Notes: generated by a model from the sequence alone, not told the origin. A stretch of 64,000 nt of DNA from Escherichia phage vB_EcoM_Kelasse (MW749001.1), one strand, 5' to 3'; positions 6,883 through 43,943 are shown, counted from the first letter of the stretch. Made by a program: numbers and translations.

Positions 6883-8301
6883 TTATGGATAGGTATAGAT
6901 GATACCAGTTTCTAAAGCAGTTTTATGAATGATGTATCCATTACGCGATTCTTGGACATCAACTTCTGGATAGTCTTTCATCATCTTCTGAAGAGTGTAA
7001 CGATGCAGGTAGTATTTACTATCTGGATCGTCAGTTTTCCAATCTTTACCTTCTTCGGTCATTTTTTGGATTTCATCCATAACCCACCAACCGCACCAGA
7101 TGTAAGCTGAAGTGCGATGTGGAAGAGGATGAACATAAGGCAATTCACCTTCTGGTTCTGGAGCAACTTTATCAGTTACCTGAACTTGACCTTCTGCTGT
7201 GATAGTTTTGCTATCATAATCAGTAGCAGTAACAGTTGCAGTAACTTCAATAGTTTGACTTCCAATAGATGATGTATCAACAGTGTATACATTAGTTGAC
7301 CCTTCTACTGGAGAAGAATCTTTCTTCCATGAATATTCGATTTGTGCTTCTTCTGGAGCATCCGTAACATTAGCAGTAAATGTAGCCGAAGCATCTTGCT
7401 GAACGTTAATAGAAGGAGGAGTCAATGTAACCCGTGGATTCATTGTTTTCTTATTAACAGTCAATGATACTTCATTAGAAGTAACTTCCTTTTCATTGTA
7501 ATTTTCAGCAGTTACTTGGGCTACGCATTTAATTCTTTTAACCCCACTTGTAGTTGGAGTGTAATTGAACGTAGCATTAGTTTCTCCACCAACTTGTGAA
7601 TCATCTACATACCACTGATACGTAGCAGATGCTCCTAGCGGCTGCGAAGCTAAGGCAGCAGTAAATTGAACTGGGGTTCCAATTACTCCTGCTGGAGGAC
7701 TATCAGGAGTTACTGCCAAAGTAGTCGTCTGCGTCTTTTTATTAACAGTCAGTGATACTTCATTAGAAGTAACGCTTAGTGTATCATAATCTGCCGCAGT
7801 TACTTGAGCTACACACTTGATTTTTTTAACTCCGCTTGTGTCAGGAGTGTAATTGAATGTAGCGTCAGTTGCTTCGTCTACAGGAGAACCGTCAACGTGC
7901 CATTGATACGTAGCGTTTGCACCTGATGGCTGTGAAGCTAAGGCAGCGGTAAATTCAATTGGAGTTCCAATCACTCCAGCATCAGGGCTACCAGGAGTTA
8001 CAGCTAAAGTAGTTGTTTGTGTCTTATTTTGAACTGTGATAGTTGTACTAATTTCAGCTGTTTCAGGTTCAGATTCTGCAACTTGATTGGTTGCAACTAC
8101 TTTAATAGTCTTTTGACCGGCAGGTCCTTTTAGTACATAACTAAAAGTTGCTGACGTTTCTTCCTGTGGAGCGTCGTCTACAGTCCAAGCATATGTAATA
8201 GGTCCATCTCCAGTTTGACCACTGGGTGTAGCAGTAAACTGCTGAGTCTGATCTATAACTCCAGTAGGTGTTTTAGGAGTTATATCAACTGTAAAAGTCA
8301 T
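6883..8301 (-). CDS. hoc: highly immunogenic outer capsid protein with four Ig-like domains
   Basis: 472 aa, MTFTVDITPKTPTGVIDQTQQF...; conserved C-terminal capsid-binding region ...YIWCGWWVMDEIQK; internal 96-aa tandem repeat. Confidence 0.85.
   Translation of the reverse strand: MTFTVDITPKTPTGVIDQTQQFTATPSGQTGDGPITYAWTVDDAPQEETSATFSYVLKGPAGQKTIKVVATNQVAESEPETAEISTTITVQNKTQTTTLAVTPGSPDAGVIGTPIEFTAALASQPSGANATYQWHVDGSPVDEATDATFNYTPDTSGVKKIKCVAQVTAADYDTLSVTSNEVSLTVNKKTQTTTLAVTPDSPPAGVIGTPVQFTAALASQPLGASATYQWYVDDSQVGGETNATFNYTPTTSGVKRIKCVAQVTAENYNEKEVTSNEVSLTVNKKTMNPRVTLTPPSINVQQDASATFTANVTDAPEEAQIEYSWKKDSSPVEGSTNVYTVDTSSIGSQTIEVTATVTATDYDSKTITAEGQVQVTDKVAPEPEGELPYVHPLPHRTSAYIWCGWWVMDEIQKMTEEGKDWKTDDPDSKYYLHRYTLQKMMKDYPEVDVQESRNGYIIHKTALETGIIYTYP
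7450..8025 (-). repeat. intragenic tandem duplication in hoc (two 288-bp units)
   Basis: Protein residues 93-188 and 189-284 are near-identical (KTQTTTLAVTP...SNEVSLTVNK); DNA repeat visible. Confidence 0.8.
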
Positions 8302-18114: not shown

Positions 18115-19079
18115 TGTATTCTTTAGAGGAATTTAATAATCAAGCAATAAACGCAGATTTCCAACGTAATAATATGTTTAGCTGCGTTTTTGCGACAACT
18201 CCATCAACTAAAAGCTCTTCGTTGATAAGTTCAATTAGCAACTTTTCTTATAATAACTTGGGCCTAAATTCAGATTGGTTAGGATTGACTCAAGGTGATA
18301 TTAATCAGGGAATTACCACGCTAATTACTGCTGGCACACAAAAACTGATAAGAAAATCAGGGGTTAGTAAATATCTTATTGGTGCCATGAGTCAACGTAC
18401 AGTTCAAAGTTTATTAGGCTCATTTACAGTTGGTACATATTTAATTGACTTCTTTAACATGGCATATAACTCATCTGGATTGATGATATATTCTGTAAAA
18501 ATGCCAGAGAATAGATTATCCTATGAAACTGACTGGAACTACAATTCTCCTAATATTCGCATAACCGGGAGAGAATTAGACCCTTTGGTTATTTCATTTA
18601 GAATGGATTCAGAAGCTTGTAACTATCGTGCAATGCAAGACTGGGTTAACTCCGTTCAAGACCCAGTAACTGGATTACGCGCTTTACCGCAAGATGTCGA
18701 GGCAGATATTCAGGTTAATCTTCATTCTCGTAATGGATTGCCTCATACTGCGGTGATGTTCACCGGATGCATTCCAGTGTCAGTGAGCGCTCCTGAGTTA
18801 TCATATGATGGAGATAACCAAATAACTACATTTGATGTTACTTTTGCGTATAGAGTGATGCAGGCTGGAGCAGTTGATAGGCAAGCTGCGCTTGAATGGC
18901 TTGAATCTGCTGCTATAAATGGTATTCAAAGCGTTCTCGGAAATAGTGGAGGTGTTACTGGACTATCTAATTCGCTTTCACGACTCAGTAGATTAGGGGG
19001 AACTGCAGGAAGCATTTCAAACATTAATACTATGACAGGAATTGTCAATTCGCAAAGTAAAATATTAGGAGCAATATAA
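18114..19079 (+). CDS. 54: baseplate tail tube initiator
   Basis: 321 aa MYSLEEFNNQAINADFQRNNMFSCVFATTP; terminator hairpin downstream. Confidence 0.85.
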   Translation: MYSLEEFNNQAINADFQRNNMFSCVFATTPSTKSSSLISSISNFSYNNLGLNSDWLGLTQGDINQGITTLITAGTQKLIRKSGVSKYLIGAMSQRTVQSLLGSFTVGTYLIDFFNMAYNSSGLMIYSVKMPENRLSYETDWNYNSPNIRITGRELDPLVISFRMDSEACNYRAMQDWVNSVQDPVTGLRALPQDVEADIQVNLHSRNGLPHTAVMFTGCIPVSVSAPELSYDGDNQITTFDVTFAYRVMQAGAVDRQAALEWLESAAINGIQSVLGNSGGVTGLSNSLSRLSRLGGTAGSISNINTMTGIVNSQSKILGAI

Positions 19080-19083
19080 CAAT

Positions 19084-19101
19084 GGGGACCGAAAGGTCCC
19101 C
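19084..19101. terminator. bidirectional terminator between gene 54 and minus-strand ORF
   Basis: GGGGACC-GAAA-GGTCCCC followed by ATATTTTTATTT. Confidence 0.65.
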
Positions 19102-19107
19102 ATATTT

Positions 19108-19398
19108 TTATTTACGGAATGAAATAAAAGCAGCAACTGAAGCAACTAAACTGTCTTCAATATAAACCTCAATTTTTACCGGAGCTTCTGACTCAAATTT
19201 ACCTGTTACTACACCTTGGAAAATACTTTCAGTCTGTTCTGGCTTTGAAAAATTTTCAGAAGGAAAAATTCCGAACTTTTTATCTGTTCCAAAAATTTTG
19301 ATAAATTCATCGTAAACTGCTTCATTAAAAGCATTATCAGCAGGAATAACGCCTTCAACTACAAGTTCTTGACCTAAAAAGCGCAAAGAAGATTTCAT
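19108..19398 (-). CDS. hypothetical protein downstream of alt
   Basis: 96 aa ORF with GAGGA SD; driven by repeated early-promoter cassette. Confidence 0.5.
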   Translation of the reverse strand: MKSSLRFLGQELVVEGVIPADNAFNEAVYDEFIKIFGTDKKFGIFPSENFSKPEQTESIFQGVVTGKFESEAPVKIEVYIEDSLVASVAAFISFRK

Positions 19399-19429
19399 TT
19401 TGTGTTCCTCATGTTATGTCAGTAAGACT

Positions 19430-19459
19430 ACTATAACACAACACGAGGGACTTGTAAAC
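19430..19459 (-). promoter_or_regulatory. early promoter (GTTTAC -35, 18-nt spacer, TATAGT -10)
   Basis: Minus strand GTTTAC-N18-TATAGT then leader with GAGGA SD; part of a 54-bp exact repeat. Confidence 0.5.
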
Positions 19460-21516
19460 TACATTTTGAACTTTTTAGACATTCCGTTGATGTTAACCAA
19501 AGAAGCCAAGATTTGAGAAACTTCGTTTTCCTCTTCTTTTGATTCTTCTACAAGGAATTGATTAAATCCAGCCATTGGACGAACTTCACCAGTTTCCATT
19601 AGATGGTCGCCATCATATACCGATTCCTCTAATTGTTCAGAAGGAGGAACGATTGTACCTTCTATTAGATACTTGTTATAAGCAGTTTCTTTCATAAAGT
19701 ACGTGCTCACTTTATTAATCTTCAGTAAAATTCCACGCGGTAGAATAACTTCAGCTTCTGATGGAAATCCTGATAAATGACCTGGAACGATAACTTTGAT
19801 TCGCTCAGCTCCTTTAATTACCATACCCACGCTAGTTTCAGCATCTTCATTAGCATATGTAGAATGACTACCCATATGCATCAAATCTTCTGCATCAACG
19901 GAACCTTCTCCTTCGCCAGAAAATACTGCGCCGGAATCATCTAGAGCCATATAGTTTTTACCATGCTCACCGAAGATATTTGGTTTAAGCGATGTGGATA
20001 CGAAGTTCTTGAAATAGAACATTTTATTTTCAATGTTATGACGCAAAGTTTTAAAGGTAACTTCTTGTCCACGGTAAAGTGTAGTTCCTGGAGGAAGAAC
20101 TGAACCTTTAGCGAATGCAGAATCAAGCGTCTCAATATGTTTAATAGCTCGTTCCATATATTCTTCACGGGTAGAATCTGGTTTACCCAAAAGGAACGAG
20201 TTCATTTCAACATATGAATCTGCACAATAATCTTCAATTACATCAGACTCAGCCTGAGTTAATCCTTTTGGAGTTACTTCAGTACTTGCATATTCATATG
20301 CCTGAGCGGCAGATTCATTAATCAATTTATAAATGCCATTCATGACAAATTGAATAATAGCTGTCTTTTCATCTGGTGTAGCTTTAGAACCTTTAACTAA
20401 ATCATTGATAATTTTCTTAATAACATCAAAGCTATTAGAAATATTAATGTCAGCAAGATCGCTTAAAATTTTATCAGTTTTATAATCAAAGAATTCTTTA
20501 TTCTTTAAATATTCTTGAGAACCTTGATATGTTATATCGCTCTGCAGCTTGATAGATGGATCGCGTAAACGTGCATGGGCCAATGCAATATGATTTCGGA
20601 AGTTTTCTAGTTCATAATCGTTAGATTTAAAACGAGAAGCACTTCTCATACCACCGATAGCTCCTTTGCTAAAGTTTGAACCAATCTGAATAACGCCAGA
20701 GTTCATCGGACCTTCTGCTTTATATACCGGAACTTTAGATTCAAACTCTTGATATTTCTTAGCAGCGAAGCTATCACCCTGAAGTGAAGCATCAACAGTA
20801 GAATATTGAGCTTGTGCTGCTAATCGACGACTAATTTTAGTTTTCTGAATAACAGCTTGATCCGTGCGCTTATCATTTTCTAAAGCAATAGAAGCAGCAA
20901 CAGCGACAGCTTTAGGAACAGCATTACCTGTTTTAACGTCTACATAAACATCACCAACCTTTGATTCAACTTTTGTGAATAACTCAGTTGAAATAGGAGG
21001 TACACCTGGAATGTCTTCTAAATTGGCATTTTTACGGTAAACCATAATATATGCATATTTCTTATCATAGTCCCAGATTTCCTTTAAAAGAACATATCGA
21101 CCTGCTCCTTTAGTACGTACTAAACGGTCAGCAATAACTTGCATTTGACGAGCTGCGCCATTTGTTTTACTCTTTAGTACGCGGAATAAGCATGCATCAA
21201 TTTTATACTGTTTCATTGTTTGAAGAGCAGTATCAAAAACAGCATTAATGACGCCAATTGGATTTCCACCCAAGTTTTTAAGCTTAACTAATGATAGTTT
21301 CTCATTAACACCTATCATTACGATATGCATCATTTTGTCGCCTGGCTTAACGTTTTTATTCGTATCACCGCCAGAGGTGTATGTACAAAATCTAAATCCA
21401 GGAAGCACGCTTTCTTCACCGGCTTGAATAGCAAAAATTTGTGGTATTTTATGCTTAGGATTTAAGTTAACAACCGGCGCCGAAGCGCCGTCAAATAATT
21501 CTGTAATAAGTTCCAT
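19459..21516 (-). CDS. Alt-like mono-ADP-ribosyltransferase, paralog 2
   Basis: 685 aa; N-term MELITELFD...; R-S-E motifs LYRGQ / FVSTSL / EAEVILPRG; SD 3 nt after paralog 1 stop. Confidence 0.8.
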   Translation of the reverse strand: MELITELFDGASAPVVNLNPKHKIPQIFAIQAGEESVLPGFRFCTYTSGGDTNKNVKPGDKMMHIVMIGVNEKLSLVKLKNLGGNPIGVINAVFDTALQTMKQYKIDACLFRVLKSKTNGAARQMQVIADRLVRTKGAGRYVLLKEIWDYDKKYAYIMVYRKNANLEDIPGVPPISTELFTKVESKVGDVYVDVKTGNAVPKAVAVAASIALENDKRTDQAVIQKTKISRRLAAQAQYSTVDASLQGDSFAAKKYQEFESKVPVYKAEGPMNSGVIQIGSNFSKGAIGGMRSASRFKSNDYELENFRNHIALAHARLRDPSIKLQSDITYQGSQEYLKNKEFFDYKTDKILSDLADINISNSFDVIKKIINDLVKGSKATPDEKTAIIQFVMNGIYKLINESAAQAYEYASTEVTPKGLTQAESDVIEDYCADSYVEMNSFLLGKPDSTREEYMERAIKHIETLDSAFAKGSVLPPGTTLYRGQEVTFKTLRHNIENKMFYFKNFVSTSLKPNIFGEHGKNYMALDDSGAVFSGEGEGSVDAEDLMHMGSHSTYANEDAETSVGMVIKGAERIKVIVPGHLSGFPSEAEVILPRGILLKINKVSTYFMKETAYNKYLIEGTIVPPSEQLEESVYDGDHLMETGEVRPMAGFNQFLVEESKEEENEVSQILASLVNINGMSKKFKM

Positions 21517-21519
21517 GAT

Positions 21520-23616
21520 TTATCCTTGAACGAACTTGTAAGGCATGTTTGTAATATCTATGCAAGACGCAATAATTCCAAGAGATGATTCTACTTTCTG
21601 TTTAACGTTTGATGAAACAAATGATGCAAAGTCAACTCTGTCTTCTATTTCAATATCACCTGTCATTGCAACCAATTCACCAGTTTCCATTAAATGGTCT
21701 CCATCATAGATTACCGATTCGGTGAGCTCTTCCGTAGTCATAACTTCAGCTTGAATGAGTTTTGTATTATTAGATGTTGTTCCGTCATTATTAGAAGCAT
21801 CAGTTATTTTATTAACTTTGACCATCAATCCACGCGGTAGAATAACTTCAGCTTCTGTTGCTATTCCGAGACTTCCTGGATATACAACATTAACTTTATG
21901 AGCTCCATCAATTGCCCATCCTATTTGAACTTTAACGTATTCAGGATTTTCTTTATACGCTCTTATTTCGTTTGGATTAATAGTTATTCCTTCTTCATTT
22001 TTATCAACTGTTAATTCATTGCGAGCTTCTGGTTCTAAAAGACCAATACCAGCATGTGTAATTCCAAAACGTCCAAAAATGATAGGAGTTAAAGAAGTAG
22101 ATACAAAATTTCTGAAGTAGAACACTTTATTTTTAACTAACGCTTCATATATAGGAGCAGTCATACTTTGAGCACGATAAACTGTAATGCCTTCTGGTAT
22201 ACGGTCACCATTTTCAAAAGCTGAATCTAAGTTATTTATAGCAGATTCAATTTCTTTTTCACTCATTACATCATATCGTTCTGGATTGTAACGACCTAAA
22301 AGAAGATTATTGATGTCAGTATATCCTGAACCGCAATATTCTCTAATGCCACGCTTTTGTGATGGAGTATATTTAGAACCATCGCGGGCAATAGTAATAT
22401 CAATCATTGGACCAGCACCAATTCCAGAAAAACTGTAAATCATTCGTTTGAGGAATTTAGTTTTTGCTGCGTTCCAGGAATTTTTAGTTATTTCTTCCCA
22501 GACTTCATCTGGTTGTCCTTTACGATTTTTATTATGATTAGCAAGCCATTTATCTTTATAATCTTCAAAGAATTGATTTATAGCTGCTGCGTATTTCTCT
22601 AAACATTTTATTGAAGTAGTTGGTTCATTTTTAATTGCATTAAAAATTACTTCTTTAATTTTTTCTGAAACTTCACCGACTTGACTCATTGGAAAGAATT
22701 TATAATCATAGTGAAGTTCATCTGCCGTTCCTTCAGCAATAATTTTTGCTGCCTTTGTTTTAGAAGCTAATGAATTAATTCCAATTTTCATTTCTTCTGC
22801 TTCGGGAATTAAAGGTGCAGTAGCTGGTTTATTAAAATTAGCTGCTGTAGATTCATACTTCTGGAATAATTCACTTTCAAATCTAGAAGATTCCAATGAC
22901 TGGCTTTGTGCAATTGCTCTACGGGAAATTTTAACTTTAACGATTACAGCTTGGTCAGAACGTTTATCATTTTCTTGCGCAATAGATGCTGCAATTGCTT
23001 CATTTTTGGTTACTTGAGCTCCAGTATCTTTATTAATATAAACATCACCGACCTTCGATTCAACCTTAGTAAAGAGCTCGGTACTAATTTCCGGAACCCC
23101 TGGAATGTCTTCTAGTGATACATTTTTGCGATGTATAAGAATATATGCATACTTTTTATCATAATCCCAGAGTTCCTTAAGAAGGACGTATCTGCCACCT
23201 GAACGACTACGGATAAGTCTATCAGCAATAACTTGAATTTGTCGAGCTTGGCCAGCAGTTTTAGACTTAAGAATACGAAGCATACAAGCATCAATTTTAT
23301 ATTGACGCATTGTTTGCATTGCAACAGTAAAAACTGAATTGATATAATTAATTGGGCTTGGACCAAGACCTTTTAATTTAGCAATTGAACCTTTAGCAGT
23401 TAATGTAAAAGGAACAATATGCATCATTTTGTCGCCCATTTTTAAATCACGATTAGTATCACCTCCAGATGTATAGGTACATAAACGAAAGCCTGGTTGT
23501 TCAATTGCATCATCAACATGAACTGAAAAAATTTGTGGTATTTTCTTCTTTGGATTTAAGTTTGTAATCGGAAGAGTAGTATCTTCGTCAAATAATTCTG
23601 TAATGAGTTCCATCAT
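21520..23616 (-). CDS. alt: Alt mono-ADP-ribosyltransferase (virion-packaged), paralog 1
   Basis: 698 aa (MMELITELFD; true start may be second Met at 23613); R-S-E motifs VYRAQ / FVSTSL / EAEVILPRG; TATAAATA late promoter upstream. Confidence 0.85.
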   Translation of the reverse strand: MMELITELFDEDTTLPITNLNPKKKIPQIFSVHVDDAIEQPGFRLCTYTSGGDTNRDLKMGDKMMHIVPFTLTAKGSIAKLKGLGPSPINYINSVFTVAMQTMRQYKIDACMLRILKSKTAGQARQIQVIADRLIRSRSGGRYVLLKELWDYDKKYAYILIHRKNVSLEDIPGVPEISTELFTKVESKVGDVYINKDTGAQVTKNEAIAASIAQENDKRSDQAVIVKVKISRRAIAQSQSLESSRFESELFQKYESTAANFNKPATAPLIPEAEEMKIGINSLASKTKAAKIIAEGTADELHYDYKFFPMSQVGEVSEKIKEVIFNAIKNEPTTSIKCLEKYAAAINQFFEDYKDKWLANHNKNRKGQPDEVWEEITKNSWNAAKTKFLKRMIYSFSGIGAGPMIDITIARDGSKYTPSQKRGIREYCGSGYTDINNLLLGRYNPERYDVMSEKEIESAINNLDSAFENGDRIPEGITVYRAQSMTAPIYEALVKNKVFYFRNFVSTSLTPIIFGRFGITHAGIGLLEPEARNELTVDKNEEGITINPNEIRAYKENPEYVKVQIGWAIDGAHKVNVVYPGSLGIATEAEVILPRGLMVKVNKITDASNNDGTTSNNTKLIQAEVMTTEELTESVIYDGDHLMETGELVAMTGDIEIEDRVDFASFVSSNVKQKVESSLGIIASCIDITNMPYKFVQG

Positions 23617-23636
23617 ATCCTCTCTAGTGTTTATTC

Positions 23637-23644
23637 TATTTATA
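23637..23644 (-). promoter_or_regulatory. late promoter TATAAATA (alt paralog pair)
   Basis: Minus-strand TATAAATA about 20 nt upstream of alt ATG, just after a hairpin. Confidence 0.55.
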
Positions 23645-23665
23645 AAATTAAAGGCCCGAAGGCCT

Positions 23666-23854
23666 TTAATAATCTATTGGTAAGAGAGTACGATATATTT
23701 CAAACTTTGGACCTTTTTCATAGGCATCAAATGTTTCTGTGAATTTATTATAAGCATATGCATCTATAAATTCAATCATGATTTGTGATACAGAAGTAGA
23801 AACATCTCCACCTTCTTTTTGAGCCACGACAATTGTTTCTAAGTAAGCTTTCAT
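23666..23854 (-). CDS. hypothetical protein
   Basis: 62 aa; start overlaps ligase stop (ATGA-type coupling). Confidence 0.45.
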   Translation of the reverse strand: MKAYLETIVVAQKEGGDVSTSVSQIMIEFIDAYAYNKFTETFDAYEKGPKFEIYRTLLPIDY

Positions 23855-25314
23855 AAACCAGTTACCTCATGAAAATCGCCAAATACATCTTCGAACGTAT
23901 TAGCTTTAGTTTTATCTTCACGTAAACGAATCGCAATCGGAAGAAATAATTTAACGTAATCAGTGCGACCATCAGATTTTAACCAACCGTTGCATTCGCA
24001 CTCTAGAATTTTTCCAATATAATAATTTTGATTTTCCATAATGCGAGTACGATCAAGTTCATGCGATTTTACACCGGCTTTATCTTTTAAGCCTGAACCA
24101 GCATTTACTTTAATTTTTCCACACTCTGATTCAAGAACGAAACCACCTGCTTTAGTAGGGTCTTTACGGTGAGGATAAATTCCTACAATTTTTAAATCAA
24201 CATCAATTACTTCTTTAAATTTATAGAGATTTTTTGAACGAGCATTTTCCCATAATCCATCGATATTTTTGAGAATAATACCTTCAAGACCTTGGTCAAT
24301 ATACTTTTTGTAAATTACCTTAGCTTCATCTAGGTTATTTACTACTTGGTTTTCAATTAAAATTACTTTATCATAGCCTGATGTCATTTGTTCTAGTTTA
24401 GAAAAACGTACATCATATTTTAAACGAAATGCTGGAAGACCATATATTTCTACTAATGGAACATAGTCCCAGACCTGAAACTTCATGCATTGTGCTTCTT
24501 TTTCAGAAATGGTTCCCTTTAAAGATTTATTGGCGATGCCATTAGATGCAGTACGTGATTCAGCTACTTCGGCGAATTCTTTAGCTTTACTAATTTCAGG
24601 ATAAGCATCAAAAAGAAAATCTAGGCCTTCTGGTTCCTTTTCAACTTGCTCATGGTATACCAATTCGCCATCAATTAACACACCTTCTGGATGAATCTGG
24701 CGGGCTTCAGCAGTCATTTTGATTAACTCTTCCTTAAGAAGATCTAATCCTAGATATTCATTGCCAGCTCGTGATAAAAGACGAACATCATCTAATTCAT
24801 CACCTCTGACTTCGGCAAAGCACCGAGCTCCATCAGCTTTTAATTGGGCAAAGGCTGGAAATTTGATATTCTTATTAATGCCTTTTTCATCATAAGAACT
24901 TGCCAGCATTTGAGGTTGTTCAGGAATTAAACCTGGCCAAACTTTATTTGCAATAGATACTGATGCACCGCATTCAAGGTCTCGCATCATCACCCGACGC
25001 AAAACTTCAACATCATCTTTTTTACCATCGGTGATGTATCCAGTTAATTCCTCAATCGCCGCATTTCCAGTCAATTTCCGAGTAGCTAACGTGAATTCAA
25101 TGAAGTCAAGCATATCGGTAAGAGTCAACATTCCAAAACTCTGGGTAGCAATACCAGGTTTAGGCCATTTCTTGATATAATACTGTAACCCACGAGAATA
25201 AGTCAGACGATATACTCGTTTAAGCAATTCATTATCTTTATTCTTTTCAAGAATTGCTTGCTTCTGCTTAGTTGAACCAATAGATGCTATTTCGTTCAGA
25301 ATTTTAAGAATCAT
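23851..25314 (-). CDS. 30: ATP-dependent DNA ligase
   Basis: 487 aa MILKILNEIASIGSTKQKQAILEKNKDN; adenylation motif KADGAR. Confidence 0.9.
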   Translation of the reverse strand: MILKILNEIASIGSTKQKQAILEKNKDNELLKRVYRLTYSRGLQYYIKKWPKPGIATQSFGMLTLTDMLDFIEFTLATRKLTGNAAIEELTGYITDGKKDDVEVLRRVMMRDLECGASVSIANKVWPGLIPEQPQMLASSYDEKGINKNIKFPAFAQLKADGARCFAEVRGDELDDVRLLSRAGNEYLGLDLLKEELIKMTAEARQIHPEGVLIDGELVYHEQVEKEPEGLDFLFDAYPEISKAKEFAEVAESRTASNGIANKSLKGTISEKEAQCMKFQVWDYVPLVEIYGLPAFRLKYDVRFSKLEQMTSGYDKVILIENQVVNNLDEAKVIYKKYIDQGLEGIILKNIDGLWENARSKNLYKFKEVIDVDLKIVGIYPHRKDPTKAGGFVLESECGKIKVNAGSGLKDKAGVKSHELDRTRIMENQNYYIGKILECECNGWLKSDGRTDYVKLFLPIAIRLREDKTKANTFEDVFGDFHEVTGL

Positions 25315-27595: not shown

Positions 27596-27961
27596 TTAAA
27601 TATCAAATTCGTTAAGAACTACATCAAAGATTGCTTCCAGATGCTCAGGTTTAGCTCTGTTACTCAGAATATGACGAATCCAAGTTTTAACCAGAAGCTT
27701 GCGATTAACGCCATTCCAGCAAGGATGAGTCCCTAAATCGCGTTGACGGAAATCATCATCCAGAGCGATTTTAAAGTTGGAACCTTCCATTGTGATTGAA
27801 ACCGTAATGCCATTTTCAAATCGCATATAAACGTAGTTAGGAGTCATATACTGTTCAATTTCGCATACTGATCCATTTTGATGTTTCCAAAGGCAAATAG
27901 TATCAATAGAACCTGCAATACCATTAGAAACATATTTACGTTCAAAGTTGATGTAGTTCAT
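27596..27961 (-). CDS. hypothetical protein
   Basis: 121 aa ORF. Confidence 0.5.
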   Translation of the reverse strand: MNYINFERKYVSNGIAGSIDTICLWKHQNGSVCEIEQYMTPNYVYMRFENGITVSITMEGSNFKIALDDDFRQRDLGTHPCWNGVNRKLLVKTWIRHILSNRAKPEHLEAIFDVVLNEFDI

Positions 27962-28029
27962 TTTTATTCTCCGAGATGTTTAATTGCGGTACAGGTATAT
28001 AATATCATATCCTGTACCAAAGTAAACAA

Positions 28030-28362
28030 TTATTTTACTACTTTCCAGTGCTGCATGTCAAGTTTACCGACTTTTTTCATCTTCTCAATTAAACGTTCGG
28101 CACGTTGGCGAGCTGTAACATAATACCATTCACCTAATTCATTTTGTTCAATTTTTCCAACGATTACTGTATTCAATTCATAAATCCAACCAGTAAAGAA
28201 ATTATGAACTTGAATTGTAAAGGTGAAATCTGTTCCCATACCTTCTGCTGTTTCTACTTCAATAATATCACCTTCAACTGCCATTAAAAACCACATAGTT
28301 TCATCATATTTACCATTGAAGCATTTAGTTTTAACTGCAGCGTTCAGATTAATCGTTTTCAT
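28030..28362 (-). CDS. hypothetical protein
   Basis: 110 aa ORF. Confidence 0.5.
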   Translation of the reverse strand: MKTINLNAAVKTKCFNGKYDETMWFLMAVEGDIIEVETAEGMGTDFTFTIQVHNFFTGWIYELNTVIVGKIEQNELGEWYYVTARQRAERLIEKMKKVGKLDMQHWKVVK

Positions 28363-28449
28363 TTTATTCTCCTTTGTTTGTGTAAGATAATACTATCACA
28401 AAGGAGCTATACTGTAAACAACTTTATGCAATCTTTGGAAAATAAAAAA

Positions 28450-31188: not shown

Positions 31189-31424
31189 AGTACGCCATAC
31201 ACCCTTTGTGCTTCAACTAATCCATCAAAATCCAATTTGAGATGTGTTATTTGATCACCATCACCTGGATTCACAATTACTAATACTGAACGAGGAGTTT
31301 CGGTAATAACACGAACCGATGTTTCAGGAAATCGTTCAGAAACCTTATTTACCAATTCCTGTGCAAATAGCTTAACTTTTTCTTGGAATTCTTTAACAGT
31401 AATCGGTTTTTCACTTAGCAGCAT
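31185..31424 (-). CDS. hypothetical protein (cd-pseT cluster)
   Basis: 79 aa. Confidence 0.45.
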   Translation of the reverse strand: MLLSEKPITVKEFQEKVKLFAQELVNKVSERFPETSVRVITETPRSVLVIVNPGDGDQITHLKLDFDGLVEAQRVYGVL

Positions 31425-31485
31425 TTTGTTTTCCTCATTTGTTTGGTAGAGCTATAATATCACAACTCTACCGTAAAGTAAACTA

Positions 31486-33903: not shown

Positions 33904-34253
33904 TTAGAAAGGTCCTGGATGTCTTCTGCGAACTTGTTGAAGGAGTTGTTGATTTGTTTTTCAACCAATCCTGGCTTATGAGCCACCACATCCGCCTTCT
34001 TTGCGTCTTTGCGCAGTTTTTCATTTTCACGCTCAATAGCAGCAATTGCCTCACGATTTTTATTATTCATCGCATCAATATAATTATACTGAATTCGCAA
34101 ATTATTTAATGCTAAAGCGTTTTCATTGGCCGTTTTTGTAATTTCTACAACAGACGTTTCTAATCTTTCAATTTTATTTTTTAAAATTAAAGAAGTTCCG
34201 CCCAATGCAATTACAATTAATAGCAAGCCTGCTGTCGTATTACTTAATTGCAT
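33900..34253 (-). CDS. inner-membrane spanin
   Basis: 117 aa; N-terminal hydrophobic TM (GLLLIVIALGGTSLIL) then coiled-coil; overlaps o-spanin start. Confidence 0.6.
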   Translation of the reverse strand: MQLSNTTAGLLLIVIALGGTSLILKNKIERLETSVVEITKTANENALALNNLRIQYNYIDAMNNKNREAIAAIERENEKLRKDAKKADVVAHKPGLVEKQINNSFNKFAEDIQDLSK

Positions 34254-34750
34254 AAAGTTTTAATAACCTCTATAATATCGTCTTGAGAAAGACCGTTAAT
34301 TAAAATATGATGTTCAGCCGGAGATTTAGAAATTTTAAAGCATGCCTCAACATCTTCTGCCATATCTGATGCGCTACGATTTGGATTACTAATTCCAAGA
34401 CGATGTTTTCCCGTCAAAGGATTAACGATGATATAGCATTTACAGTTGTTAATATGAACATTAGGTTGAGTCTGATTAATGAACACATCACAATCATATT
34501 TCGCAAGCTGATTTTCTAAAAAGACTTTCATCTCCTCAACTGCATCAGGAAGCATATCACGGGCTTGCTCAAGACGACGATTTCGATATTCTTTAATGGT
34601 CGTTTTCCGCTTGACTTGCTTAGCTAAATCTTTCTTAAGATCGGTGATATATCCAACTCGACGATTTCCTTTGAATACAGAAATCCCATCTGTAGTATCA
34701 CCGTATGCTTCAACGACCATTTCAGTAGTAATAAGTTGTAAATCCATCAT
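34244..34750 (-). CDS. alc: Alc, inhibitor of host transcription
   Basis: 168 aa MMDLQLITTEMVVEAYGD; position between spanins and rnlA. Confidence 0.75.
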   Translation of the reverse strand: MMDLQLITTEMVVEAYGDTTDGISVFKGNRRVGYITDLKKDLAKQVKRKTTIKEYRNRRLEQARDMLPDAVEEMKVFLENQLAKYDCDVFINQTQPNVHINNCKCYIIVNPLTGKHRLGISNPNRSASDMAEDVEACFKISKSPAEHHILINGLSQDDIIEVIKTLCN

Positions 34751-34778
34751 AAAGTCCTCATGTTATGTCAGTAAGACT

Positions 34779-34808
34779 ACTATAACACAACACGAGGGAC
34801 TTGTAAAC
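34779..34808 (-). promoter_or_regulatory. early promoter (GTTTAC -35, 18-nt spacer, TATAGT -10) for alc
   Basis: Second copy of the 54-bp cassette, between rnlA stop and alc start. Confidence 0.5.
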
Positions 34809-34811
34809 AGC

Positions 34812-36399
<1,588 letters not shown>

Positions 36400-42929: not shown

Positions 42930-43172
42930 TCAAACAGACTTTTTCACAATTTTCCAATCAGCTTTAAACTGCTCGACGTCAGAATGGTAAATCCAAAATC
43001 CTGCGCTTTCTCCGTCTTCATAAAGAGGACATCCATCGCATTCATCTTCCCATCCCATATCACGTAAAAGATGTTCAGCTTTTTCAACAAGTTCAGAATC
43101 TTTACCGATGATATTAAAATACCATTTACCTCTAACTTCCGAATCTTTGATGCTCTGACGTTGTAATCTCAT
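42930..43172 (-). CDS. hypothetical protein
   Basis: 80 aa; GAGGAG SD; early promoter upstream. Confidence 0.45.
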   Translation of the reverse strand: MRLQRQSIKDSEVRGKWYFNIIGKDSELVEKAEHLLRDMGWEDECDGCPLYEDGESAGFWIYHSDVEQFKADWKIVKKSV

Positions 43173-43200
43173 TTTATTCTCCTCAGTAGTTGATAGGGTA

Positions 43201-43230
43201 ATAGTATCACACTACTACCCTGATGTAAAC
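43201..43230 (-). promoter_or_regulatory. early promoter (GTTTAC -35, 18-nt spacer, TACTAT -10)
   Basis: Minus strand GTTTACATCAGGG...TACTAT upstream of ORF 42930..43172. Confidence 0.4.
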
Positions 43231-43639: not shown

Positions 43640-43870
43640 TTATTGTTCAATCAATCCCATGTAAAATTCTGTGTCTTCAGAATCCATGCCATCACAATAT
43701 TCATTAGCCATAAAGCGGGTGAGGTCTTCAAGAGGACCTTCAATGACAATAGAAAAATTGCAATAATTGGGATCATCGTGAATACTTGTGATACTAAGTT
43801 CAGGATAACGATTACGAATAATTTCTTCGATATATTCAAAATCAACGATGTCAATATCAACTTTAGCCAT
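43640..43870 (-). CDS. hypothetical highly acidic protein
   Basis: 76 aa from [16 protein letters not shown] (about 25 percent D/E); SD GAGGA; longer ORF-track start would run through terminator and promoter. Confidence 0.5.
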
Positions 43871-43913
43871 ATTATTTTCCTCTTTAATCATCAGCAGTAT
43901 TGCCGATAGTTGT

Positions 43914-43943
43914 ATAGTACCATGGAAGAACAGGGATGTAAAC
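43914..43943 (-). promoter_or_regulatory. early promoter (GTTTAC -35, 18-nt spacer, TACTAT -10) with A/T-rich upstream element
   Basis: Minus strand GTTTAC...TACTAT; A/T-rich block between gene 32 terminator and promoter. Confidence 0.45.

Follow-up and report, generated by a model that had tools for sequence, protein, structure and literature searches.

When the same 54 nucleotides occur twice in one phage genome, letter for letter and each time directly in front of a different gene, the question arises as to what such a sequence encodes, whether the second copy was acquired recently, and what each copy does for the gene that follows it. The case considered here comes from Escherichia phage vB_EcoM_Kelasse (MW749001.1), a Tequatrovirus (T4-genus) genome, of which one stretch of 64,000 nucleotides (referred to below as the window, with positions counted from its first letter) was analysed.

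The two copies and their distribution

The sequence concerned, TCCTCATGTTATGTCAGTAAGACTACTATAACACAACACGAGGGACTTGTAAAC, is present at 19406-19459 and again at 34755-34808 without any mismatch between the copies, as a sequence-only reading of this DNA had reported, and on the minus strand each copy reads GTTTACAAGTCCCTCGTGTTGTGTTATAGTAGTCTTACTGACATAACATGAGGA, followed by 7 nt and then an ATG. The pair was also recovered as repeat family D4 in a repeat scan of the window, where no further match to the 54-mer exists at up to 3 mismatches, and since none of 100 dinucleotide shuffles (0/100) contained any match to it, chance is excluded as the source of the identity. Its limits are sharp, the first shared base being the G of GTTTAC and the last the final A of GAGGA; outside these the sequences are unrelated. 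Gene annotation bears out the neighbours assigned earlier: copy A is situated between the stop codon of an alt paralogue and alt.-3 (DUF5498), the open reading frame that follows alt, while copy B occupies the gap from rnlA to alc. The features concerned are these.

19406..19459, minus strand: cassette copy A (alt.-3 site), an exact match from the G of the alt-paralogue TAG stop codon to the last A of the Shine-Dalgarno (SD) sequence
34755..34808, minus strand: cassette copy B (alc site), an exact match beginning 3 nt past the rnlA TAA stop codon and ending at the last A of the SD
19108..19398, minus strand: alt.-3 (96 aa, DUF5498), orthologue of T4 alt.-3, the gene that copy A would serve
34244..34747, minus strand: alc (167 aa, Pfam ALC), assigned by domain and T4 comparison, the gene that copy B would serve
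19459..21516, minus strand: second Alt-like ADP-ribosyltransferase gene (alt2, 685 aa), its stop codon overlapping base 1 of copy A
21520-23616, minus strand: alt (Alt-like ADP-ribosyltransferase, 698 aa), in tandem with alt2
34812..35936, minus strand: rnlA (gene 63), upstream of copy B, its start set by the 374-aa T4 protein

Among GenBank phages the 54-mer was found at 997 places in 499 records, each Tequatrovirus genome having two and no other phage any; T4 itself carries both copies, 53/54 identical to each other. Because all 499 Tequatrovirus records, T4 included, hold both copies, the duplication must be old, and the pair is a fixed, genus-wide feature of Tequatrovirus rather than a recent acquisition of this genome. 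Of the recent duplication or conversion that had been suggested, it is thus the recency that has to be given up, while an origin by conversion or replacement gains support from the different alt.-3 promoters of other genera (described below).

Promoter, leader and ribosome-binding site

In both copies a promoter scan calls TTTACA-17-TATAGT with a TG extended -10, at 10/12 matches. The GTTTAC-18-TATAGT of the earlier reading is the same site, and the anatomy of promoter, leader and SD which that reading described is sound. The individual elements are located as follows.

19453..19458, minus strand: -35 hexamer TTTACA of copy A (promoter scan)
19430..19435, minus strand: -10 hexamer TATAGT after TGn, copy A, at the top of the hairpin described below; predicted start at about 19423
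34802..34807, minus strand: -35 hexamer TTTACA of copy B (promoter scan)
34779..34784, minus strand: -10 hexamer TATAGT after TGn, copy B (promoter scan and fold); predicted start at about 34772
19406..19410, minus strand: SD GAGGA of alt.-3, 7 nt before the ATG at 19398
34755..34759, minus strand: SD GAGGA of alc, 7 nt before the ATG at 34747 (the start annotated in T4), with a second ATG at 34750

The start sites are placed by the usual 7-nt spacing to the -10, at about position 37 of the 54, and the predicted leader is about 25 nt long in each cassette. Judged by these motifs, each cassette is a sigma-70/T4 early-type promoter with a leader and an SD. One might suppose that two such elements would resemble each other simply as early promoters, and yet seven other early-type promoter-leaders in the window share only 17-29/54 positions with the cassette when compared ungapped and anchored on the -35 (35-40/54 if gaps are allowed), so that the identity is not one of general promoter consensus, a point on which the earlier claim holds. 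Upstream of the -35, the 30 nt belong to coding sequence and include runs of A (aaaaagttcaaaatgta; aaaaattataaaaaattta), the genome as a whole being AT-rich. The two T4 GenBank records have no promoter annotated at either site, a predicted one appearing only in the Lutter record, and a literature search for a paper mapping T4 start sites found none.

Two other kinds of element were considered and rejected. A late or middle promoter within the cassette is contradicted by the absence of TATAAATA in or near both cassettes and by the listing of middle promoters elsewhere, and a RegB site was dismissed because GGAG is absent from the T4-type SD.

A hairpin enclosing the -10 element

What the sequence-only reading overlooked is, on the folding predictions, the main feature of the anatomy, namely a hairpin of 14 + 4 bp that encloses the -10 and pairs the SD. 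In the sense RNA a 14-bp stem joins positions 12-25 (CCUCGUGUUGUGUU, in the promoter spacer and including the -10's first base) to positions 40-53 (GACAUAACAUGAGG, comprising leader and SD), while an inner 4-bp stem, AGUA/UACU, closes the hairpin and leaves the -10 in its loop or top. At the base of the 5' arm, and hence in the promoter spacer, an anti-SD CCUC faces the GAGG of the SD.

19435..19448, minus strand: hairpin 5' arm of copy A (CCUCGUGUUGUGUU, anti-SD CCUC at its base), in the promoter spacer (fold)
19407..19420, minus strand: hairpin 3' arm of copy A (GACAUAACAUGAGG, including the SD) (fold)
34784..34797, minus strand: hairpin 5' arm of copy B (fold)
34756..34769, minus strand: hairpin 3' arm of copy B, including the SD (fold)

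Against dinucleotide shuffles the hairpin has z values of about -4 to -5.7, those of the 14 + 4-bp fold being -5.6 to -5.7, and in RNA contexts of 94-704 nt its mean stem-pair probability is 0.90-0.97. A structure of this kind accounts for constraint on the sequence of both spacer and leader.

The consequences for the ribosome-binding site (RBS) should depend on where the RNA begins. In RNA reading through from upstream the SD is predicted to be paired with a probability of 1.00, whereas RNA from the cassette's own promoter, starting at about position 37, would be without the 5' arm, so that its SD is predicted to be open. Pairing probability is misleading as the sole metric here: when RNA of copy A begins at its own start, weak pairing of the SD to UCUUC (codons 3-5) already yields a paired probability of 0.98, although this local pairing is cheap to open, and the opening energy was used in its place. 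The predicted cost of opening the RBS is 14.4-17.0 kcal/mol in read-through RNA as against 3.2-5.3 kcal/mol in own-start RNA. According to established work by de Smit and van Duin, which relates initiation to the stability of hairpins, a penalty of at least 10 kcal/mol should nearly abolish independent initiation.

For the T4-type hairpin the predicted stability is -23.0 kcal/mol in the sense strand and -13.7 kcal/mol in the antisense strand, three G.U pairs of the stem being C.A mismatches in the complementary strand, as they would be in a cruciform of the DNA, although across lineages the sense/antisense comparison is inconsistent. The stem is AU/GU-rich, not GC-rich. An intrinsic terminator was rejected as an identification, as the terminator scan calls neither cassette and a U-tract is absent, the tails being AACACAAAAUG and CUUUAUGAUG; so too was a known RNA family, Rfam giving 0 matches for the whole window at the gathering threshold and, below threshold, a single hit to a miRNA model (19.9 bits against a cut-off of 140).

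The region upstream of alc in other genera

The order rnlA, a gap of about 60 nt, alc and then Rz is kept in other genera, and this allows the region to be compared widely. A scan of IMG/VR with an Alc alignment (profile) as query returned 37 loci, where single-protein queries had returned only 5-6, and the comparative set consisted of 40 distinct alc upstream sequences. In 29/40 of these the promoter spacer pairs with the whole of the SD (z -3.3 to -8.3); they come from Tequatro-, Karam-, Gelderland-, Jiaoda-, Braga- and Dhakavirus together with IMG/VR lineages. The layout is constant, consisting of TTTACA, an anti-SD arm, the -10 in the loop, an SD arm, 4-10 nt and the ATG, and within it the arms themselves vary by lineage, as pairs: UCUCCAUUUGG/CCAAAUGGAGA, UCCUCAUUUUGUU/AACAAAAUGAGGA, UCCUCAUCAG/CUGAUGAGGA, ACCUCUCAUUUU/AAAAUGAGAGGU (with a CG variant) and UCUCCUCAU/AUGAGGAGA.

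Whether such arms have changed together can be asked by exchanging them between lineages. In an arm-swap test over ten lineages the cognate spacer-leader duplexes had a mean energy of -19.8 kcal/mol, as against -10.1 kcal/mol for non-cognate ones; the cognate partner came first in 18/20 row and column rankings, and 0/20,000 permutations equalled the cognate total. Covariation of this kind implies that the arms co-evolve and that the hairpin is selected. The test is alignment-free, and it replaced pair counts from a covariance model of the Karam/Gelderland type (R1), in which minus-strand echoes of the same hairpins were included and the T4-type stem was misregistered because it starts 3-4 nt farther from the -35; a plain MAFFT alignment (A2) likewise put the 3' arms out of register.

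It must be added that occlusion of the SD is absent in about a quarter of alc lineages. No large hairpin is present upstream of alc in Mosigvirus, L067 or Ac42, and in L053, L066, L059 and L028 (a Providencia phage) a hairpin of 11-13 bp surrounds the -10 and ends 2-6 nt before the SD. From these cases it may be the hairpin, rather than masking of the SD, that is the universally conserved feature of alc.

Some of the remaining loci have peculiarities of their own. In the Mosigvirus-like loci L025, L033 and L056, as compared with L031, the SD is not occluded and there is a small spacer hairpin as in the alt.-3 cassettes of other genera; the Mosigvirus alc cassette is identical to the alt.-3 cassette of the same genome at 46/63 positions, a likeness for which either an older transfer, from alt.-3 to alc, or membership of one promoter subfamily could account. 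Three IMG/VR loci (L044, L045 and L068) have a GC-rich, terminator-like hairpin (GGGGTGTACAAGCCCC with a T-rich tail) before alc, and their Alc match of about 740 nt, where about 500 is usual, suggests an insertion or a split alc gene. In L023 (Gaprivervirus ECML-359) a short extra ORF, annotated as T4 Alc-like, stands before alc, and there is no intergenic promoter cassette.

A third cassette and other promoter hairpins in the window

The same design recurs once more in the window, in front of gene 30.8.

28360..28418, minus strand: third promoter-in-hairpin cassette, TTTACA-17-TAGTAT, upstream of gene 30.8 (Pfam Phage_30_8)

Here the spacer CUCCUUUGU pairs with ACAAAGGAG, which holds the SD, in a duplex of -13.8 kcal/mol (z -5.2). 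The sequence is unrelated to the 54-mer, making this an independent instance, and orthologous sites exist in T4, T6, PP01, P8 and GBLB0003. More generally, 6/9 early promoters in the window have a hairpin bracketing the -10, and the SD is paired in only 3 of these 6. The other three are listed here.

43170-43229, 27959-28026 and 31422-31482, minus strand: promoters with -10-bracketing hairpins and free SD, z -2.5 to -5.6

A weaker hairpin, at 43868-43942, pairs UUCUUC with GAGGAA.

Expression timing and expected read-through transcription

Whether RNA from upstream is to be expected across the cassettes can be judged from the surroundings of both copies. Two further features bear on this.

23637..23644, minus strand: late-promoter motif TATAAATA, 21 nt upstream of alt
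19082..19103, no strand assigned: bidirectional intrinsic-terminator-like hairpin in the gap between alt.-3 and gene 54 (terminator scan)

Within 18900-24500 the only minus-strand terminator candidate is that at 19082-19103, past alt.-3, with none on the way from alt and alt2 to alt.-3, and between denA/rnlA and alc no minus-strand candidate was found either. The late motif at 23637..23644 would carry late transcription through alt, alt2 and copy A. As to middle promoters, those listed closest upstream of alc, PI-TevIII and PnrdB, are located beyond rnlA. Given no intervening terminator, a late motif before alt and middle promoters beyond rnlA, read-through RNA is to be expected, and both cassettes should be traversed by transcription from upstream. 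The element at 19082-19103 is a GC-rich palindrome whose 9-bp hairpin is perfect and has runs of T on either strand, and looks like a bidirectional terminator closing a tiny alt.-3 transcription unit.

Published T4 omics data class alc, alt.-3 and 30.8 as early in both RNA and protein; alt is late, the RNA of alt.-1 and alt.-2 is middle, and the RnlA protein is late. With alt.-3 early while alt.-1 and alt.-2 are middle and alt is late, an early promoter is needed in or near the 32-nt gap before alt.-3. All this said, the early class of alc and alt.-3 is what any early promoter would lead one to expect, and it is uninformative as to a translational block.

Origin of the alt.-3 copy and subsequent drift

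The early promoter in front of alt.-3 in Karam-, Dhaka-, Mosig- and Marfavirus likewise adjoins the stop codon of alt. It is of a different type, having a small hairpin within its spacer and an SD that is left free. Comparison of the alc cassette with that of alt.-3 in these genera gave 46/63, 45/65 and 43/62 identical positions (about 70%), the Karam- and Mosigvirus pairs being taken from one genome each and the Dhakavirus pair from two phages of the genus, as against 54/54 in the window. As the other genera carry this different promoter type at alt.-3, parsimony favours replacement in the direction from alc to alt.-3, and we infer a conversion event in the Tequatrovirus ancestor by which the alt.-3 copy was probably derived from alc, the alc cassette being ancestral. 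Plausible endpoints for it are TTTACA and ACATGAGGA, which are common to both types of cassette.

Since then the copies appear to have gone largely separate ways. Of 16 genomes holding both, identical copies are found in only 4, and within Tequatrovirus, whose genomes are 95-99% identical in the cassette regions, the cassette varies at up to 5/54 positions. The change T27C (cassette position 27, window 34782), which turns the alc -10 from TATAGT into TACAGT, occurs in 7/16 alc copies but in 1/16 alt.-3 copies, while G29A and G32A are almost exclusive to alt.-3 copies; G29A breaks the inner stem but creates a perfect TATAAT -10. On this pattern the alc and alt.-3 promoters may be tuned differently. 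Derived changes common to both copies of a genome were seen, among the 16, only in PP01 and GBLB0003 (2 changes each). The copies thus now drift mostly independently, with conversion occasional and not continuous. Variants that preserve pairing recur in Tequatrovirus (C15U, G16A, G40A, and C15U together with G50A), whereas those that break the main stem (C12A, G16U, U19A and G40U) are singletons. Both window copies carry the genus consensus.

It had also been proposed that the two copies are substrates for recombination. This is plausible in principle, but recombinant junctions are not seen: chimeric queries representing the deletion (rnlA-cassette-alt.-3) and the duplication (alt-cassette-alc) found no record covering at least 80% of either query in the 499 genomes. 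The interval between the copies contains genes 30 and 31, both essential in T4, so a deletion between the copies would be lethal.

Relation to known systems

The published class that comes closest is that of the promoter-early stem-loop (PeSL) cassettes of T4-type phages. By the definition of Arbiol et al. (2010, PMC2839356) these are intergenic and combine the stop codon of the gene before them with an AT-rich tract, a sigma-70 promoter, an SD and an ATG; they also have a stem-loop in one of five possible positions, mostly between -35 and -10 or over the -10, which those authors took for a recombination linker and for a terminator or attenuator. The text of Comeau et al. (2014, PMC4122927) extends PeSLs to T4 and PST, with the motif TTTACW-N17-TAYWAT. 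According to the PeSL papers, one RB49 stem-loop cut expression of a downstream lacZ about as much as a strong terminator, and PeSL-mediated recombination is documented in RB49/phi1. By its anatomy the present cassette fits this class, having an upstream stop, a sigma-70-like early promoter with a 17-nt spacer, a predicted stem-loop over the -10, and an SD and ATG at its 3' end; it also shares the aspect of repetition and exchange, with two identical copies in the genome and an alc-type cassette found at alt.-3 only in Tequatrovirus, which implicates it in transfer between loci. The six window promoters with hairpins bracketing the -10, out of nine, likewise fit the PeSL form with a stem-loop over the -10. 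There are differences, however. The published stem-loop is a terminator or attenuator, whereas here the 3' arm is the SD itself and a U-tract is absent; moreover it is essential genes, not a dispensable ORF, that the copies enclose at a distance of 15 kb from each other, and a product of the mini-circle type was not seen. The running text of PMC2839356 and PMC4122927 makes no mention of translation, ribosomes or alc.

A second parallel is offered by e, soc, 49 and I-TevI of T4, genes whose RBS is sequestered by a hairpin with a late promoter inside it (PMC3014915, section 29). In these, as by prediction here, the SD is in a helix of the long RNA, and the shorter RNA from the internal promoter is without the 5' arm and translatable. 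Those promoters are late (TATAAATA) and the hairpin silences early read-through, whereas the cassette promoter is of the early sigma-70 type and its hairpin would silence middle and late read-through. The list of RBS hairpins in that section of the review does not include alc, alt.-3 or 30.8. T4 early promoters as such belong to the 'uber' UP/-35/TGn/-10 class (Hinton 2010, PMC2988021), which the cassettes resemble in their GTTTAC-type -35, their TGn extended -10 and their position directly before an immediate-early gene (PMC2988021). That likeness extends to the 17-29/54 positions or so covered by the early-promoter consensus; identity in spacer and leader is specific to the alc/alt.-3 pair.

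In the RNA coliphage MS2, translational coupling operates through melting of a hairpin. The cassettes are similar in having a downstream SD that is paired to sequence near the end of an upstream ORF, and different in that the 5' arm follows the upstream stop codon and is not inside the ORF, and that a promoter is embedded in the structure.

Proposed mechanism and alternatives

From the elements described above we infer promoter activity, with its start site, and a translational block, and the reading to which we would give somewhat better than even credence is that of a cassette with an early promoter in which the hairpin of spacer and SD limits translation to RNA begun at that promoter. Each copy would be a compact early cassette of the PeSL type, with a strong sigma-70/T4 early promoter of the form TTTACA-17-TGnTATAGT, a leader of about 25 nt and an SD, in which the spacer arm bearing the anti-SD CCUC pairs with leader and SD (14 bp plus the inner 4 bp) and leaves the -10 in the loop. 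Read-through RNA, coming from rnlA in the case of alc and from the late alt/alt2 transcript in the case of alt.-3, would hold both arms, fold and bury the RBS; RNA from the cassette's own promoter, starting at about position 37, would be without the 5' arm and have its SD open. On this model translation of alc and alt.-3 would be confined to the immediate-early transcripts of each gene's own promoter, while middle or late RNA reading through from upstream would not be used. The alt.-3 site would have gained the alc cassette when the Tequatrovirus ancestor underwent a conversion or a patch replacement whose endpoints were in TTTACA and ACATGAGGA. A wider generalisation, to which we would give slightly less than even credence, is that such promoter-of-origin gating is a device of Tevenvirinae, a spacer anti-SD making translation promoter-dependent for alc in at least 6 genera and for alt.-3 and 30.8 in the T4 genus, with the unit portable and moved whole from alc to alt.-3 by conversion.

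The alternative that deserves the longest hearing, unlikely though we consider it, is that the stem-loop does what PeSL stem-loops are published as doing, attenuating, terminating or 3'-stabilising upstream transcripts, and that pairing of the SD is a by-product of fitting everything into a 60-nt gap. Its location over the -10 is one of those published (between -35 and -10, or over the -10), the RB49 example did lower lacZ in a terminator-like way, only three of the six window hairpins at early promoters pair the SD, and four alc lineages retain a hairpin that does not do so. As against this, neither copy has a U-tract, nor do other genera (their tails are A-rich), the terminator scan is silent, the stem is AU/GU-rich, and in 29/40 distinct sequences the anti-SD is located exactly at the base of the stem. 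The two functions could, it should be said, coexist. Translational coupling, in which ribosomes finishing the upstream ORF would melt the base of the anti-SD:SD stem and so link downstream translation to their own, we regard as improbable. In copy A, as in Dhaka- and Bragavirus, the upstream stop codon does abut or overlap the -35, with the anti-SD 6-11 nt past the stop, but the main stem of copy B begins 15 nt past the rnlA stop, which by general ribosome footprints is beyond the reach of a terminating ribosome; the distance from stop to stem also differs among lineages, and the published classes have Alc early but RnlA protein late.

A quite different suggestion would be that the inverted repeat acts as DNA, for instance by forming a cruciform, by binding a protein or by being a hotspot of recombination through which promoter cassettes move, any RNA fold being secondary. 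The cassette has evidently moved between loci, PeSL-mediated recombination is known in RB49/phi1, and sense and antisense strands, compared over the lineages, fold about equally well; even so this is very improbable, for the three G.U pairs of the T4-type stem would be C.A mismatches in a cruciform, the systematic involvement of the SD has no rationale at the level of DNA, and none of the 499 genomes has a recombinant junction. Scarcely credible, finally, is the notion that the pair is a historical duplicate only, kept alike by shared ancestry in a young genus, with neither hairpin nor identity having any function. It can appeal to the 95-99% identity of Tequatrovirus regions, to variation at up to 5/54 cassette positions and to the independent drift of the copies; but covariation of the alc hairpin across genera rules out a functionless stem, and variants that break it are rare singletons, so that as regards the hairpin this explanation is largely refuted.

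Wider significance

If translation is indeed gated in this way, the cassettes would provide a concrete function for PeSL stem-loops, so far described only as terminators or attenuators and as recombination linkers, and at least one PeSL subclass would consist of translational gates, not terminators. The T4 scheme of a hairpin plus internal promoter would be extended from late to immediate-early genes with its timing reversed, and this would explain how Alc (the terminator of host transcription) and Alt.-3 are strictly early despite upstream genes that are transcribed later; mutants affected in Alt.-3 escape the CmdTAC defence system. The pair offers a clean case of a whole regulatory cassette copied between loci and, for annotators, a caution that identical promoter repeats in T4-like genomes are not necessarily recent or unstable. 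A modest practical use might be as expression-timing cassettes for engineered T4 phages.

Other observations on the genome

Around copy A the alt/alt2 tandem gives rise to repeat families D2, D5, D8 and D18 at a spacing of about 2.09 kb, and T4 has one alt together with the remnants alt.-1 and alt.-2 where the window has a second full-length alt gene. Elsewhere, a direct repeat of 251 nt with 76% identity is found at 7499-7749 and 7787-8037, at a spacing of 288 nt (family D1, with D11 alongside). With respect to sequenced relatives the source genome is a mosaic: its alt/alt.-3 region (18900-19900) is 100% identical to Escherichia phage FriedrichZschokke, and its rnlA/alc region (34250-35250) has at most 98.6% identity to any record.
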